Below are positions 1 through 7,580 of a DNA stretch of 64,000 bases, piece by piece. How positions within the stretch are numbered: the first letter of the stretch is position 1; every line of letters starts with the position of its first letter. The stretch is taken from the NCBI GenBank assembly GCA_001784175.1, contig MFPR01000033.1, forward strand, positions 1-64,000, in the 5' to 3' direction. The DNA comes from Candidatus Lindowbacteria bacterium RIFCSPLOWO2_12_FULL_62_27 (GTDB lineage Bacteria > Lindowbacteria > 2-12-FULL-62-27). A program made the position numbers and the translations under genes. The notes beneath the pieces were generated by a model. That model was not told where the DNA came from, ran no database searches, and was given only the letters and a program-made list of their open reading frames with translations.

Positions 1-103
1 CTGTAATGGGCGTAACGCTGTGGATGGCGTCCAGAGCGGCGAAGACGACGGCGCGGTAATGATCGCCCGTCAAACAACGTGAACCTGTAACGGCTAGTCT
101 CAT
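1..103 (-). CDS. YspA/SLOG-like (DUF2493-type) protein, 5' part only
   Basis: Not in the ORF track. Manual translation MRLAVTGSRCLTGDHYRAVVFAALDAIHSVTPIT fits the M(R/K)xxVxG(S/G)R...V(F)xxLD start of this family. RBS AAGGAGGG lies 7 nt upstream. Confidence 0.7.
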   Translation of the reverse strand, partial: MRLAVTGSRCLTGDHYRAVVFAALDAIHSVTPIT

Positions 104-138
104 GTCTGATCCCTCCTTTTCATTTTGCGACGACGAAA

Positions 139-189
139 ATTTTTTTCGTCCGCCTCATCAGTTCTTCAACTGAGGCGGACGAAAAAAAT
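139..189. repeat. Perfect 19-bp inverted repeat with 13-nt loop
   Basis: ATTTTTTTCGTCCGCCTCA (139-157) / TGAGGCGGACGAAAAAAAT (171-189). Confidence 0.95.
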
Positions 190-558
190 CAACACATGAT
201 GTAGACGGGTACGTGGACGTCTCCACACAACCGGGGACAGGGATGTCCCCGGAAGATTGCACGGATGCGGGGAGTCCGAGGGGAACACCTCGGATAAAAT
301 CCGCCAAATGGAGCACGCCGACCCGAGGATGCGTAAAATTGCGCCCCAGATAGTCAGCGCCACGCACCGCAGGGTCGGAGTCAAGGGGCACGGGATCGCC
401 ACAAAAATAAAAGCACCAATAGCGGGGTTGGAGACGGCCACAATTCCAAATCTCCAATGGCTGTGGCCGTCTCCTTTGAATACCTTTTATTTTTGCGGAC
501 GATGCCCCTTGCCGCCGCCGACCGAGCGAACGGACGTCGCCGTGCCGCTACTGCGGCA

Positions 559-572
559 NNNNNNNNNNNNNN
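559..572. other. Assembly gap (14 N)
   Basis: Run of N inside a predicted hairpin. Confidence 1.
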
Positions 573-1098
573 GCACGGACGACGCCGAGAGCGACGACGG
601 CGGGAATTCGGGCGGAATGCGGCGTACCGACAGCTGTTTATCTGCCGGCAAGCGGGCTCCTGGGATAGCCCCTCCGAAAGTTGTTTTGCGCTCGCCATAA
701 ACCTCCGCCTGCGTGGGCGAGCGCTTCAATGAGGACCCGTATTTCGTGCCCGGAATCGTGCTCGCTGGGCGGCCGATTTCGTCCTGCGGCGATTTTTGCC
801 GCAGGGCGACGGCCGCCGAAAAATCGCTGACGCTGCCTTCACGATTACGGGTTCGCCCATTGCCTCTGCCGCCGCGGTTGATCGGGAAGCACCAGCGTGG
901 GCGGGTTCGTCCCGCACCAACGGTGCGGGACGAGTGCCGCCGGCGATCACGGGTTGCGGAGGGAATGGTCACGGGGCAGCGGGATATGGATGCGGCACGG
1001 ATTATGCGCTCGTGCGGCACCACGTGTGTCTGCGGCGCGTAATCGTGAGGCGGGTGCGTCCGCACCCGCCCACTAAGCCTGCCGGCGTTTGAGGCGAA

Positions 1099-1419
1099 TT
1101 ACCTGTTCTGGCGGAGATAGCGGCCGATCATGAAGGCCACGCCATCTCTTTGCTCGTCAGTGAGATTAAGCCCTCGCAATATTTCCTCCGGCACTTCTTC
1201 TCGGACTGACACAGTACCCACTGTCGATTGAACCGCCTGCCTATTCCACAACAAACAAAAAAATCCACCTCCGTTCGCTCGGATCATCACGGCGAATTCG
1301 ATCGCTTCACAAAGGCAGAGCAGTTCATGGATTGTCGGCAGACGCTCTTCAGCGAAAAAACGGAATTGTGAGCGTACTGTCAGAGGGCAGACTTTCCCCA
1401 AGAAGTCGTAGAGCAACAT
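1099..1419 (-). CDS. Hypothetical protein (~106 aa)
   Basis: ORF 1099..1515 with a better start at ATG 1419 (MLLYDFLGK) after GGAGG. Lower GC than its flanks. Confidence 0.55.
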   Translation of the reverse strand: MLLYDFLGKVCPLTVRSQFRFFAEERLPTIHELLCLCEAIEFAVMIRANGGGFFCLLWNRQAVQSTVGTVSVREEVPEEILRGLNLTDEQRDGVAFMIGRYLRQNR

Positions 1420-1529
1420 ATGTCCCACCACCTCCGCCGCGAAGTCGCACGACCATGGGTCGTGGACCCCACCGCCCACTTGCCCAAGTGTGCGCCGGGT
1501 CGGAAGTCTATTCAACTACGACGGAAAAG

Positions 1530-1582
1530 TGGTCTCCATTTGGTCTCCAGTAGGATGCCAAAACACGACAAATTCCGACAAA
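1530..1582. repeat. Tandem direct-repeat doublets, possible integrase arm or accessory-factor sites
   Basis: TGGTCTCCA at 1530-1538 and 1541-1549; CGACAAA at 1566-1572 and 1576-1582; 110-160 bp from the tRNA junction. Confidence 0.5.
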
Positions 1583-1690
1583 CTGTGAGGGTTGACGCGA
1601 CGGCAGAGAATGCGGGTTAACTCTCTGATTTATCTGTAACTACGTGATAGCTGAACGACATTCGGAAGTGTTGCGATTTTCGCCATTAGA

Positions 1691-1732
1691 AGATTTACAG
1701 TCTGCTCTCGTTGTCCACTGGAGCACCTCCCC
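1691..1732 (-). tRNA. tRNA-Tyr(GTA), 5' half only (split gene / att site)
   Basis: Minus strand GGGGAGG-TG-CTC-CAGTGGACAAC-GAG-A-GCAGA-CTGTAAA-TCT gives acceptor 5' strand, D arm and anticodon arm. No CCTCCCC acceptor 3' strand or canonical T arm follows. Confidence 0.8.
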
Positions 1733-1746
1733 GGGAACAACGAATC

Positions 1747-2715: not shown

Positions 2716-4446
2716 ATGAATCTGTCGAACTTCAATAAGGCGGCGTATCCGATCCAGGCCCTTTTCAAATATATCTACCGCTGGTTCTTCGCCTGCCCGG
2801 ACAAGCTTTCCCACTCGAAGATCTCGACCTTTCTCTCCTGTTCGCTCAAATACCATTTCCAGTACGGCAAGAAATGGCCGACCCGCCTGACGGGGGCGCT
2901 CACGTACGGATCCGTCATCCACAAAGTCCTCGAACTCTTTCACGCCCGTTACGACGTCCCGCTGGCCACAGAGGAGGATATCCTCGATCTTCTGGAGGAG
3001 CGCTGGTCGTCGGACGGGTTCAAGACAGCGGAGGAGGAACAGGAATACAAAGCGCGCGGCCGACGGCTTCTTTCCAAATATCTGGCCGAGGCGAAGGCCC
3101 ATCCGCCCAATGTTTGGCGGACGGAGCTGTTTGTCGAGGCGACGATCGGCGGTGTCTCGGTGGTCGGCCGGATGGACCGGGTGGACCGGGAAGCGGACGG
3201 GAGCCTGACGATCGTCGATTACAAAACGGGCGACAAAATGCTGGATCCCGAGTCTCTTCAATCGGACCTTCAGGCCAATCTGTATTATCTGCTCGGCGAG
3301 AAAACCATCGGGCGAAAATTCAAAAAGTTTTTTTACTGGTATCTGGAAAAAGACCGAAAAGTTCCCGTCACGATCACGGACGCGGCCCGCAAGGAGACGG
3401 AGCAGGTCGTCCGGACCACGGCACACCGGATGCAGTATGACGATCCGAAACCGAAAAAGGGCGTGTTGTGCAATTGGTGCGATTATTACGAACGGTGTCC
3501 GGCATGGAAGAGCCGCCCCGAACGGCTCTACAAGATCGTCCGCGAATCAGAGGACCGGCTGGGATTGTCCTATTCGAAAATCAGCCAATTCCTGAACTGT
3601 CCCATGGTCTACAAGAAGGTTTATCTCGACAAAATTTCTCCGAAGCCCAAGGGATTTTTCGCCATCGGCCACACGGTGCATCAGACGATGGAGGAGTTTT
3701 ACATGTATGACGGCCCGCTGTCCGAACCGCCTCTCGCATGGCTCCTCAAGCTCTATCACGAACACTGGATCGGGAGGGGCTACGAGTCCAAAGACGCCGA
3801 GGAGCAGGTGAGGCGGGAGGGCGAGCAGTGGATGCGGAACTACCACGCCAAATACGTGAAGGGCAAATTCCGCCGGGGAACTTACAAGGTCGAAGAATAC
3901 TTCGAATTGCCGCTCGGCCGGCACGCGATCATCGGATACATGGACCGCCTGGACAAAAATGACGACGGCACCTTCTCGCTCGTTGACTATAAAACCGATC
4001 CGGTCATGCGGACGCAGGAGGATGTGAACAAGGACAAGCAGTTGTTTCTCTACGCGTGGGCCTGCAAAAAGCTGGGCATTCCGCTGCGGGACCAGACATT
4101 GATTTTCGTCAAATTCAACGAACACCTCACGACGACGCACACGGAAAAAGACATCGCCGACTTTGAAGCTGAGATGCTGAAGGTCGCGGACGAGATGGTC
4201 GAATCCGAGCGAATCGCGCGTGAGGCGTCGCCCGCGGAAATCGAAAAGCGGTTTGCTCCCAGGATCAACAAATACTGCGGCGGCTGTGACTACTTGCCGG
4301 TCTGCCCCAAACGCGAGGAAATTCTGACCCAACACAAGGACGAGATCATGCACGCGATTGACGAGACCAAATTGAGGGACCGGATTCCCGAAGACGCCGC
4401 CGCCGACGTCGAATCGGAACAGCCGGAACCCTCGACCATGCCATGA
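2716..4446 (+). CDS. Protein with two tandem PD-(D/E)XK (RecB/AddB/Cas4-like) Fe-S nuclease domains
   Basis: Repeat 1: LSHSKISTFLSC..GSVIH..GRMDRVD..VDYKT..QANLY..CNWCDYYERCP. Repeat 2: LSYSKISQFLNC..GHTVH..GYMDRLD..VDYKT..QLFLY..CGGCDYLPVCP. RBS GGAGG. Confidence 0.92.
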   Translation: MNLSNFNKAAYPIQALFKYIYRWFFACPDKLSHSKISTFLSCSLKYHFQYGKKWPTRLTGALTYGSVIHKVLELFHARYDVPLATEEDILDLLEERWSSDGFKTAEEEQEYKARGRRLLSKYLAEAKAHPPNVWRTELFVEATIGGVSVVGRMDRVDREADGSLTIVDYKTGDKMLDPESLQSDLQANLYYLLGEKTIGRKFKKFFYWYLEKDRKVPVTITDAARKETEQVVRTTAHRMQYDDPKPKKGVLCNWCDYYERCPAWKSRPERLYKIVRESEDRLGLSYSKISQFLNCPMVYKKVYLDKISPKPKGFFAIGHTVHQTMEEFYMYDGPLSEPPLAWLLKLYHEHWIGRGYESKDAEEQVRREGEQWMRNYHAKYVKGKFRRGTYKVEEYFELPLGRHAIIGYMDRLDKNDDGTFSLVDYKTDPVMRTQEDVNKDKQLFLYAWACKKLGIPLRDQTLIFVKFNEHLTTTHTEKDIADFEAEMLKVADEMVESERIAREASPAEIEKRFAPRINKYCGGCDYLPVCPKREEILTQHKDEIMHAIDETKLRDRIPEDAAADVESEQPEPSTMP

Positions 4447-4685: not shown

Positions 4686-7580
4686 ATGTCCTTAACTCCG
4701 GGCCGGATGTTCGATTGGTTCCGATCGAAATCGGGCGCGAAGTTGCCCGCGCGGCGGCCGGAGGTCCTGCGGCCCAGCCTGAAAAAATCGCCCATCTGGA
4801 TCCCGCGGCATCTGTTGATCCTGTTTTGTTACGCCTATATTATCGGCATCGTCGCCGGGATGTACGTCTACCGGATTCCCCCGTCGTTTCTGATGTATGG
4901 ATACGGCGCGCTCGTCATCAGCTTGCTGGCCGCGATGATGATTGGATTCCTCAAACGCCAGCATGCCTGGACCGCCGGCGCCATCGCCCTCGCCGCCACC
5001 GCCCTCGGTCTGGTCAACTACTCTCGCGCCCTCGACACATCGGACCCGAGGCATCTGGTTCATTTCGCCGGCGAGGGCTTTGACGAGCGAGTCACGCTGA
5101 CGGGTGTGGTGACGTCCGACCCGGACATCCGGGAACGGTACACCAATCTGGTGGTGGAGCCGGTCACGGTCGAAACCGAAGAGGGTGAGACCGTCCGGCC
5201 AAGCGGTGGCGGCGTCATGGTGCGGCTCTATCCGGACAGCCTCGATTCTTATGGGGACTATGCCTACGGCGACAGCATTCAGGTCCGGGCGCCGCTGGTC
5301 ATTCCGCGTCGAGGCGCGAATCCCGGCGCGTTTGACTACCGGCAGTGGCTGATCGAGCGGCAGGGCTGTTACGCGACGATGCAGGTGCGTCGAAATTCGG
5401 AAATCCAAAGACTGGGCCGGAACCGCACACATTTCCTTGTCGATTTCTCTCTGCGGATGAAGGAAAAAATTCTCGAGTCGATCCGCCTGACGATGCCCTA
5501 CCCTGAATCCTCCTTCCTGGGTGGCGTGACCCTCGGCCTGAAGGGCGGTGTGACGCAGAAGACCCGGTTCGAATTCCAATCGACCGGCATCGCGCACGTT
5601 CTGGCGGTGTCCGGTCTTCATGTGGGATTCGTCGCCGTCCTGCTGCTCATGCTGGCCCATTTGTTCAATCTGCCGGAGAAATTTCATCCGGTGTTTATCG
5701 TTCTGGGGTTGATCGTTTTCTCGATCATCACCGGCGCATCCCCCGCCACCGTCCGCGCGGCCATCATGTTCAGCATGTTCATCTGCATCCGGTATTACAT
5801 GACGGGACTGGGGCTCGCGGCGTCGACGCTCCTCACCATTCCCGTCGCGGCCCTCGCGATCCTTCTGTCCAATCCCCTGCTCGTGATGGACGCCAGTTTT
5901 CTCCTGTCCTTCGGCGCGGTCCTCTCGCTGGGGCTCTTGACATGGCCCCTTCAGATGGTTTTCAACCGCCTCTTCGTCGGGTTTCGACTGGTGGCGGCGG
6001 GACTCACGGTTGTGTTCCTGACATGGATGGCCCACGCGCACTGGGGCATGTTCTTTGATCGCTCGACCGCGCCGCTGATTTTCGGGAGTCTGGCGATTTT
6101 ATGGGCCGCGGCTTTTTTGCTCCAGAAAAAATTCCCGACCGCCGTTCCCTACGGATTTACGTCCATCCATCCGTGGATCGGTTCCTTCATCGCCGCGCAG
6201 GTCGCCATCAATCTGGGCAACAGCCCGCTTTTCGCTCTCTACTTTTACCGCCTGTCGATCTCCGGATGGTACGCCAATTTCATCGCCATTCCGCTCTGCG
6301 GCATCATCGTCCAGCTGGGAATTCTCGCCGGCTTGTTTTATATGATTCCGGTTGTCGGTCCCTATCTGGCCGCGATGATCAATGGCGGCAACTTCCTCTT
6401 TTGCGCGTTTTTCCTGGGCAGCGCGACCTTTTTCGCAAATCATTTTCCGTACCCCTACGTGGGAACGCCGTCGACGGAATTCGCGGTTGTCTACTACGCC
6501 GTCCTTGCGCTGTTTGTCTGGCATCGGCCCATCTGGCATCGAATCAAAACCGTTTACACGTGGTGGCTCTACCGGAAGCAGGTTCCGGAAGTCCGCGGCA
6601 AACTTTACGCGACGCTGGCCGTGTCGGTTCTTCTGGTCAGCCTCCCGGTGTTCTACGTGATGGGCAACGCCTCCGGGCCGCGGCTTCGGATCGCCATTCT
6701 CGACGTCGGCCAGGGAAGCGTCACGATCATTCGGACGCCGTCGGAAAAGGGCATTCTCGTTGACGGCGCGCCGTATGACGGCTACCGGGACTTCAACGCC
6801 GGCCAGAACATCGTCGCCCCCGCTCTGTCGGATTACGGCATCAACGTCCTGGACCATGTGGTCCTGACGTCGTTCAAACCCGAGCACATGGGCGGCCTGC
6901 CGTTTCTCCTCCGGCAATTTCACGTCAAGGAGTTTGTCGACTGCCTGCCGCCCGAACTGGCCGACGCGAAGACGACGTGGGACACGTTTGCCGCGCGACT
7001 CGCGAAATCCCCTTACGCGCCGCTTCTGGAAAGCAAATTCACCGACGAAATTTTTGAATCCTATCGAAAGGTTCTTGAGGCGGTCGAGGAGAAGCGGGCA
7101 CGCAGGACCCATCCATCGCAAGGGCGCGTGATTCACGAAGAACAGACGCCGTACGGCATCCTGCGCGTTTCAACCGTGGCACTGCCTGACACGGGGCTTT
7201 CCATCCCGATGCGGACCGCGCTGGTCAAAATTGAGTGGGGTCCGACCTGGTCGGTTCTTCTGACCGGGGATATGACGGAAACGGAGATGGCTCTGGCCGC
7301 GAAGACCGACTCCGCCGCGCTCGACGCCGCCGTTCTCTTGTTGCCCTCTCACGGACAGGTTTTCGAGAAGTCGTTCCTCTCGGCCGTATCGCCCCGATAC
7401 GCGGTGGCTCAATCCAGGTTGCCCTTCCGGCGGCGGGCCGCCAAGCCGCATGGGACGGAAGAGGAACTGGTAAACTATTTTCAAAAGGAAGGGGGCACCT
7501 ATTTTCAGACCAACAAAAACGGCGCGATCCTGATCGAAAGCGACGGAAAACGGTTTTCCGTCAGGCCATATACGCCCTAG
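4686..7580 (+). CDS. comEC: ComEC/Rec2 DNA uptake channel (OB/DUF4131 + Competence + degenerate metallo-beta-lactamase domain)
   Basis: NPGAFDY, TGIAHVLAVSGLHVG, PATVRAAIM, FLLSF, LDVGQG, LLTGD and C-terminal TNKNGAI motifs. Confidence 0.95.
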   Translation: MSLTPGRMFDWFRSKSGAKLPARRPEVLRPSLKKSPIWIPRHLLILFCYAYIIGIVAGMYVYRIPPSFLMYGYGALVISLLAAMMIGFLKRQHAWTAGAIALAATALGLVNYSRALDTSDPRHLVHFAGEGFDERVTLTGVVTSDPDIRERYTNLVVEPVTVETEEGETVRPSGGGVMVRLYPDSLDSYGDYAYGDSIQVRAPLVIPRRGANPGAFDYRQWLIERQGCYATMQVRRNSEIQRLGRNRTHFLVDFSLRMKEKILESIRLTMPYPESSFLGGVTLGLKGGVTQKTRFEFQSTGIAHVLAVSGLHVGFVAVLLLMLAHLFNLPEKFHPVFIVLGLIVFSIITGASPATVRAAIMFSMFICIRYYMTGLGLAASTLLTIPVAALAILLSNPLLVMDASFLLSFGAVLSLGLLTWPLQMVFNRLFVGFRLVAAGLTVVFLTWMAHAHWGMFFDRSTAPLIFGSLAILWAAAFLLQKKFPTAVPYGFTSIHPWIGSFIAAQVAINLGNSPLFALYFYRLSISGWYANFIAIPLCGIIVQLGILAGLFYMIPVVGPYLAAMINGGNFLFCAFFLGSATFFANHFPYPYVGTPSTEFAVVYYAVLALFVWHRPIWHRIKTVYTWWLYRKQVPEVRGKLYATLAVSVLLVSLPVFYVMGNASGPRLRIAILDVGQGSVTIIRTPSEKGILVDGAPYDGYRDFNAGQNIVAPALSDYGINVLDHVVLTSFKPEHMGGLPFLLRQFHVKEFVDCLPPELADAKTTWDTFAARLAKSPYAPLLESKFTDEIFESYRKVLEAVEEKRARRTHPSQGRVIHEEQTPYGILRVSTVALPDTGLSIPMRTALVKIEWGPTWSVLLTGDMTETEMALAAKTDSAALDAAVLLLPSHGQVFEKSFLSAVSPRYAVAQSRLPFRRRAAKPHGTEEELVNYFQKEGGTYFQTNKNGAILIESDGKRFSVRPYTP

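Follow-up and report, generated by a model that had tools for sequence, protein, structure and literature searches.

What is a kilobase of hairpin-dense, apparently non-coding DNA doing in front of a gene of a mobile element? The window, which is the whole stretch of 64,000 nucleotides that was analyzed, forms the start of contig C33 of genome G000, and G001, G002 and G003 are the other genomes of its family. A sequence-only reading had placed at 130..1075 a large structured RNA or cis-element of no family known to it, or else an origin of replication or transfer. It had also proposed that shuffled controls, homologs and closure of a run of Ns be used as checks. From the results below, the stretch is a real, selected and undescribed structured element. 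Its role can be worded only tentatively. We read it as a transcribed, folded control region of establishment genes that would act as RNA, comparable to EGeRS1 or phage leaders, with a probability of roughly 40%.

The pairing itself is accurate. Eleven stems named in the sequence-only reading, together with 770-790/798-818, were checked letter by letter; ten are perfect, one has 14 of 15 pairs and one has 16 of 21. The Watson-Crick pairs of the eleven are, in order, 19/19, 9/9, 7/7, 7/7, 9/9, 14/15, 13/13, 9/9, 11/11, 12/12 and 10/10, and the 16/21 belong to 770-790/798-818. Comparison of copies widens the conserved unit to 104 to ~1101, and the DNA past this right end is unlike in every copy. 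The run of Ns hides no sequence, and three letters are simply written twice. Because G003 and two metagenome contigs (L031 and L032) read straight through with nothing missing, the gap is an artefact of assembly. On contig C27 of G000, the second copy breaks at the same place, and no joint was found there in contigs from four DNA sequencing runs. The stem predicted around the Ns (531-587) has a pairing probability of 1.0 in gap-free copies. The features are collected in Table 1.

Table 1. Features of the stretch and of the adjoining end of its carrier (positions in the window; strand given where assigned)
Position	Strand	Feature	Evidence
1..103	-	Start of 373-aa gene	Fusion of a SLOG (YAcAr, PF10686) domain with an orphan C-terminal domain
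111..120	-	Ribosome-binding site of the SLOG gene	Sequence; gene-proximal part kept in all 6 copies covering the site
139..189		19-bp hairpin, 20 bases from the ribosome-binding site	73/76 cells unchanged, 3 G.T on plus
231..252	+	9-bp hairpin with GGGA loop	Single G-C to C-G swap in G001
275..378		Hairpin 275-294; stem 318-378, nested	U-A in G001 at the inner C-G pair
382..511		Three-stem rod	Right arm invariant in 7/7 copies over ~55 bases; left arm and apex vary
476..503	+	Weak sigma-70-like box pair on the right arm of the rod	4/6 and 3/6 with 16-base spacer; 5/5 copies scanned
513..603		Nested hairpin with 19-nt motif (526-544) common to the sister region	N gap 559-572 at apex
688..933	+	Hairpins 688-724, 770-818 and 907-933	Compensatory changes at 692 and 910
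1049..1101		Terminal hairpin 1049-1070; the conserved unit ends here on the right	Compensatory changes at 1051 and 1052
1530..1560		Probable integrase arm-type repeat	94% like C17:64298-64328
1691..1733	-	Attachment core, right end of the element	43 bases, identical to the tRNA-Tyr(GTA) 5' half, C17:64403-64445

Folding is far from what composition predicts. Both flanks of the gap fold better than all of their dinucleotide shuffles on both strands. The z-scores are -8.85 (plus) and -9.91 (minus) for 130-558, and -4.56 and -4.41 for 573-1075, with 0/100 shuffles as good in each flank. The gap-free G003 copy reaches -10.1/-14.7 as RNA and -10.05/-13.15 as DNA (20 shuffles), and the choice of RNA or DNA folding parameters does not discriminate. 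Local inverted repeats of at least 8 bp number 12 in the stretch versus 3.2 +- 2.3 per 946-nt genome tile; 66 of 4620 tiles hold at least ten. The signal is patchy. Five of 14 N-free windows of 120 nt lie below z -3 on either strand and three on the plus strand (background for this cutoff, 13/300 single-strand draws), and at the same scale 601-780 is near zero. At this resolution, the signal stems from particular hairpins.

The local hairpins are found again in all copies and on both strands, and the long-range helices differ among the gap-free copies of G001, G003 and L032. An array of local hairpins is thus the better description than one ornate fold, and the single large structured RNA suggested at first does not survive the comparison. 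Its 11-bp helix 839-849/1038-1048 does pair 11/11 in the window; it is perfect in that copy only, and in the alignment of copies 14 of 51 non-gap cells are unlike it. A conserved long-range, multi-domain fold with covariation was not found, at the low power given by five to seven close copies.

The copies on which these comparisons rest are those of G000 on C33 (in the window) and C27, those of G003 and G001, and those of three metagenome contigs, L031, L032 and L033. The six others are 76-94% alike to the window copy and have kept its non-coding character. G000 carries the SLOG gene with its non-coding kilobase twice, 91% alike and diverging from 1046. The G003 copy is 91% alike up to 1101, and the G001 copy 86% and 76%. 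L031 resembles the C27 copy, L032 and L033 have their left halves in common, and several of the seven close copies are not independent. G002 gave no match to the stretch; its contig stops ~400 bases into the SLOG gene. The reading frame is not kept and open frames vary among copies, in agreement with the earlier remark that the overlapping frames show no protein-like features. Relative to the window, indels of 1 or 2 bases occur in all of the remaining rows of alignments A3 and A4, except G003 in A3. Since they break the frame, a conserved protein is excluded.

What is kept instead is pairing. Between G003 and G001, the left half differs at 53/450 positions (11.8%) and the right half at 102/439 (23.2%), versus 64/178 (36%) at four-fold sites of the adjacent SLOG gene. 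Between G003 and G000, the halves differ by 5.8% and 8.0%, versus 23% (41/178) at four-fold sites, a figure that uses the gene copy on C30, possibly of the other element. The stretch is therefore 2- to 4-fold better conserved than these sites. Variation avoids the local stems, with 10/156 columns variable inside versus 44/240 elsewhere (p 5e-4) and, in a second set, 12/74 versus 138/455 (p 0.012). Five Watson-Crick swaps fall in local stems (235, 692, 910, 1051 and 1052); all five come from one genome, G001, and a pair is broken by five other variants. Of 500 shuffles, 19 attain the left-half covariation score, and related sequences can give such a score without structure. In whole predicted folds carried from G003 to G001 on the plus strand, one-sided changes keep 6 pairs and break 21, and double changes keep 7 and break 5. 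G001 lacks ~75 bases including 770-818. The selection on structure that the sequence-only reading had supposed is borne out by this conservation, and on the same comparisons it acts on the local hairpins.

Searches outside the family found nothing to which the stretch could be joined. All covariance models of Rfam 15, including GOLLD, ROOL, OLE, c4 and CsrB, score far below their gathering thresholds on the window and on the gap-free G003 copy with its sister region, and none passes the E-value threshold, so that the earlier impression of no known family still stands. A DNA search of 50,697 phage and 72,556 plasmid records returned only chance matches of 24-63 bases. Viral contigs held no relatives of the queries used (one DNA pattern, the SLOG C-terminal part, P0004, P0005, RepA_C and alignment A2). 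Among 57 genomes outside the family, none matched the left half, and three gave right-half matches of 29-37 bases that we judge to be chance. A sequence-only model found no third paralog of the left half in 15 loci. In the accessible parts of the literature on the host group, the carrier kinds and the candidate related systems, no earlier description of the structured stretch was found. Two further ideas were dropped: the pairing of 522-537 with 1267-1282 puts one partner in a flank missing from other copies, and a K-turn at the 526-544 motif did not fit by eye.

Where does this unit sit? Its left end abuts the ribosome-binding site of the minus-strand SLOG gene, which runs on into contig C30 via a 76-base overlap. 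The relatives found for the SLOG-fusion protein are the close copies of the family and one 44% relative (P0004), with no deeper family, and its fold model is unusable (pLDDT 32). A group II intron, a retron and a transposon made of an ORF and its RNA were rejected because no such domain occurs in the gene and the unit keeps its place next to the sister region described below.

The carrier is an integrated, head-encoding phage-like element of Ca. Lindowbacteria, in groundwater bacteria. The earlier placement of non-coding DNA inside a mobile element is supported. Portal, capsid and terminase genes and ArdC were found, and tail or conjugation genes were not. In G003 the head genes run portal, protease, head decoration, capsid and terminase; then follow ArdC, a PD-(D/E)XK nuclease, a 308-aa acidic-tail protein, the sister region, the SLOG gene and the stretch, and after it HTH_17, RepA_C, HTH, integrase and tRNA-Thr. 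In G000, contig C17 (reversed) probably joins C33 to give an element of ~66 kb, with the integrase at C17:63186-64358 beside the tRNA-Tyr attachment site and with amidase and holin identified in the matching C17 block. Capsid proteins of 4/4 family genomes, from four genera, are 94-98% identical, and in host-like DNA the match between G003 and G000 is about 67-79%, so the element either moves between genera or is unusually constrained. The tail families PF10145 and PF04865 were found in none of the four genomes (81-94% complete). No relaxase was recognised among the 55 ORFs of the C17 part, and G000 (94% complete) yielded no MOBP relaxase, coupling protein or VirB4; these results speak against the transfer origin considered in the sequence-only reading. 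The one TrwC relaxase domain of G000 (C1:147846-148679) has host genes around it and is unlinked to the element. An oriT served by this TrwC was rejected, as only chance matches of 12-29 bases lie near trwC.

Several other observations concern the carrier. Its extent (G000 C17:1-64445 plus window 1-1733; G003 C146, which is L030 and L027) covers portal, protease, capsid, terminase, amidase, a GTA-type holin and a head-connector-like domain. Large unrelated cargo blocks lie among the conserved genes, namely type I restriction-modification, T2SS/pilus genes, an ABC-3C system and transporters. An exact 17-base near-palindrome occurs twice, at L027:16127 in the HTH_17 gene promoters and at L027:18174 between RepA_C and the HTH gene, and these are likely operators of a repressor of the element. 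At L010:1563-5297 (G000 C27), 28 tRNA genes with their own promoter boxes stand directly after the second copy of the unit, followed by SPFH and HNH genes. The array directly follows only the C27 copy and that of L031, which has the same arrangement; its upstream sequence also occurs after L033. Beyond the attachment site, the window holds comEC (PF03772) at 4686-7580, 3 kb from that site, and at 2716-4446 a 576-aa protein with two tandem PD-(D/E)XK nuclease domains, outside the element.

The element contains a second structured kilobase. This sister region (L027:12960-13950 in G003; z -7.7/-8.8) is present in 4/4 family genomes, with further copies at C17:868-1491 and C30:157158-157939. It abuts the ribosome-binding site of an operon that encodes the acidic-tailed protein and the PD-(D/E)XK nuclease and ends in ardC. 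A structured region of 1 kb thus lies against the ribosome-binding site of both (2/2) minus-strand early transcription units. The sister region has 14 compensatory pairs among 98 and leans to the minus strand, which is the strand of its genes (G.T variants 5 vs 8; 12 vs 27 in a wider set), and single copies of it have structured insertions of 56 and 74 bases. The two regions are not copies of one another, with only 19 nt in common. This motif, 526-544 in the window, recurs exactly in the sister region of G001, G002 and G003, not in the C17 or C30 copies, and is followed by a variable hairpin and then by a second near-palindromic repeat. The first gene of the nuclease-ArdC operon (L027:12029-12955, P0005) encodes a 308-aa orphan protein with an acidic DDNVPF tail and no family match. 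We take this tail to be SSB-like, and the protein may possibly be a single-strand annealing or binding protein. A hairpin before ardC (L027:10967-10991) has the same 8-base arms as the rod apex stem (430-474) in reverse order, which may be chance.

Which strand would be read is not settled by wobble pairs, as the sequence-only reading had stated, and the halves differ in their lean. Wobbles in local stems number five on the plus and two on the minus strand. The right half favours plus, with a consensus energy of -185 versus -154 and G.T variants of 7 versus 1. The left half is undecided (-167.5 plus versus -174.7 minus; G.T variants 3 versus 2), and its unpaired bases are 40% A on plus. Energies are lower on the plus strand in 3/3 gap-free copies, and the whole G003 copy has its stronger z on minus. 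No clear promoter was seen on either strand (promoter scan, 0 at 9 of 12). The boxes at 476-503 match 7/12 letters, as occurs by chance 2.4 times per kb; they are a candidate promoter for a plus-strand RNA or a candidate Frpo-like ssDNA promoter for the SLOG gene. The terminator scan found none at the right end of the unit and made no call at 139-189. The 19-bp hairpin was rejected as an intrinsic terminator because its runs are the wrong way round on both strands, with the U-run 5' and the A-run 3'.

Other signals concern the ribosome-binding site and CsrA. On the minus strand, rod arm 399-413 has a possible alternative partner in the bases next to the ribosome-binding site, with -16.6 to -19.9 kcal/mol in 4/5 copies; G003 has lost this pairing (-7.4), and 28 of 6000 random 24-mers pair equally well. 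In its minus-strand sequence, the 231-252 loop complements the ribosome-binding site of the SLOG gene. Positions 235-246 match 11/12 letters of the CsrA SELEX consensus, as given in the part of PMC7652899 consulted, with a second GGA site 22 bases on. The 10-letter core of this loop occurs 34 times in the genome, and csrA is present in 2/4 family genomes, that of the host at C20:113210-113368. The stretch has 29 GGA versus 20.7 expected in 946 nt, a count attained by 10% of genome tiles, and 8 ANGGA, attained by 6%.

The position against a ribosome-binding site, repeated by the sister region, points to a cis-acting control region. It is read as acting through RNA because two early units behind promoter-poor, selected hairpin kilobases resemble EGeRS1, and it counts in the same direction that no conjugation machinery, which would supply ssDNA, was found. 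EGeRS1 regions of pLS20 are 400-600 bp long, rich in inverted repeats and located upstream of ardC operons; as far as PMC8708921 describes them, they have no constitutive promoter and block read-through into ardC by a mechanism that is stated to be unknown. The likeness lies in inverted-repeat DNA without a clear promoter directly before the ribosome-binding sites of establishment operons, including ardC, and in both cases the action may be through ssDNA or RNA. Here, ardC belongs to the sister operon and the SLOG gene is presumed to serve establishment; the available text of PMC5512222 mentions neither SLOG nor YspA. There are differences as well. The region is ~1 kb long, the element's two regions are not mutual copies, and the 72,556 plasmids give no sequence match; multiple highly similar, EGeRS1-related copies on a conjugative plasmid were not found. 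The carrier here is a head-encoding integrative element of a candidate phylum, and that of EGeRS1 a conjugative Bacillus plasmid. By their defining features the stretch falls outside EGeRS1, Frpo and CsrB, as it does outside any Rfam family, and it would work most like EGeRS1.

In the RNA reading, about a dozen local stem-loops, kept by selection, would control the early (establishment) module. The left part (~130-510) would be the zone of leader and promoter and would hold the SLOG gene silent while the element is resident, either by blocked read-through or by a hidden ribosome-binding site, and the gene would be on briefly after entry or induction. The right part (~510-1100), which folds better on plus, may be a separate RNA of ~580 nt that is started at the 476-503 boxes and tunes the switch. 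Such an RNA would have the 513 hairpin at its start. The host may also have an input, via CsrA at the 231-252 loop. The possible working parts, all picked post hoc, would be the 19-bp hairpin, the alternative pairing of 399-413, the boxes and the CsrA-like loop. Against a leader stands the wobble lean to plus, which is not the strand of a leader.

The same hairpins could instead form in single-stranded DNA. The rod at 382-511 may be an Frpo-like promoter, with the plus strand as template, that drives the SLOG gene and primes the second strand after entry; we consider this unlikely. The geometry fits, as the SLOG gene uses the plus strand as template and the long rod bears the boxes on its 3' arm, which is invariant where the other varies. 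The wobbles lean to plus and the DNA folding z is -10. The cargo, ArdC and the acidic-tailed protein, is of the kind behind Frpo promoters in the parts of PMC11541004 that describe them, and ArdC-N is reported to bind ssDNA (PMC5512222, in part). In Frpo/ssi of F and ColIb-P9, compared here by description, anti-restriction-type genes likewise have a long rod on their template strand, and its 3' arm bears promoter-like boxes (PMC9849209, PMC11541004, available text). However, Frpo boxes are described there as canonical (PMC9849209), and those of the stretch are far from consensus, matching at chance frequency. The region is also much longer, and the similar boxes of the sister region lie outside any hairpin arm. 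The element has a dsDNA-type head and neither a relaxase (the only TrwC match is unlinked, on C1) nor a linked oriT or T4SS, and no leading region behind the oriT of a conjugative or mobilisable element was found. A further reading supplies the single strand by another route: a tail-less, capsid-packaged element may send ssDNA through the host competence channel, and the hairpin arrays would be switches that sense single strands and fire ArdC, the SSB-like protein, the nuclease and the SLOG protein ahead of second-strand synthesis. This agrees with the host comEC, the GTA-type holin, a cargo that handles ssDNA, the lean to the plus strand and the lack of recognised tail genes, and DNA of RcGTA needs ComEC (PMC12378983, in the part available). 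We rate it as improbable. If true, it would place ssDNA promoters in a virion-borne, not a conjugative, element.

The remaining alternatives keep RNA or dispense with transcription altogether. One stand-alone non-coding RNA of ~950 nt on plus, in the manner of GOLLD and ROOL or as a CsrA decoy, is quite unlikely, a little more so than the Frpo-like rod. The stretch resembles GOLLD and ROOL in size, in its prophage setting and in having no known function, and the 28 tRNA genes after the second G000 copy recall their frequent neighbors (PMC12286853, as far as available). The lower plus-strand energies, the A-rich unpaired bases of the left half and the SELEX-grade CsrA loop also agree with it. 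However, there are no reproducible long-range helices or pseudoknots, no right-end terminator and no Rfam score, and the tRNA array has strong promoter boxes of its own past the end of the unit and adjoins two copies only. CsrB/RsmZ decoys share the hairpin loop with 11/12 consensus letters and the second GGA (PMC7652899, text available), but the GGA sites here form no dense repeated array and many GGA loops were not found; the GGA total is one that a tenth of genome tiles reach. An origin of replication is more doubtful still. ColE1 replicates from a folded primer RNA, and the stretch may be such a primer or hold iterons for RepA_C. The 526-544 motif recurs as near-palindromic repeats, two in the stretch and three in the G003 sister region. 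G003 has RepA_C at a distance of 1.3 kb and C27 also carries it, and no other replication gene was recognised among the 55 ORFs of the C17 part. Yet the window's element and the G001 contig keep the region without RepA_C, iteron arrays need no compensated stems, and the repeats are few. The least probable reading, a neutral pile-up of small palindromic mobile repeats, can point to the other hairpin-rich tiles of the genome and to the structured insertions in the sister region. It is largely refuted, as the stems lack dispersed genome copies, conservation exceeds that of four-fold sites and variation avoids the stems.

To return to the carrier, the closest kind is that of the cf-PICI satellites, which have an integrase, their own head and packaging genes, no tail genes found and near-identical copies across genera, as described in the accessible part of 10.1101/2025.02.11.637232. 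The element here is far larger, ~66 kb, and carries lysis genes, ArdC and big blocks of cargo, with a plasmid-type RepA_C in some of its copies. The carrier may also be a short-tailed phage whose tail genes escaped recognition. Few systems are known in which the anti-defence genes of a mobile element are switched on briefly after entry (Frpo and Reg576). The stretch would add a case unrelated in sequence, from an uncultured phylum, where one early module of a phage-like element has two different structured kilobases and natural variation shows which stems are important. If the right half is a discrete RNA, it would be a new class of large phage RNA, and if the rod is an ssDNA promoter, that mechanism would extend beyond conjugation. 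As for the history of the unit, its terminal hairpin (1050-1093) recurs at L011:769-812 (G000 C17), on the other side of the SLOG gene, hinting that the unit was duplicated long ago.
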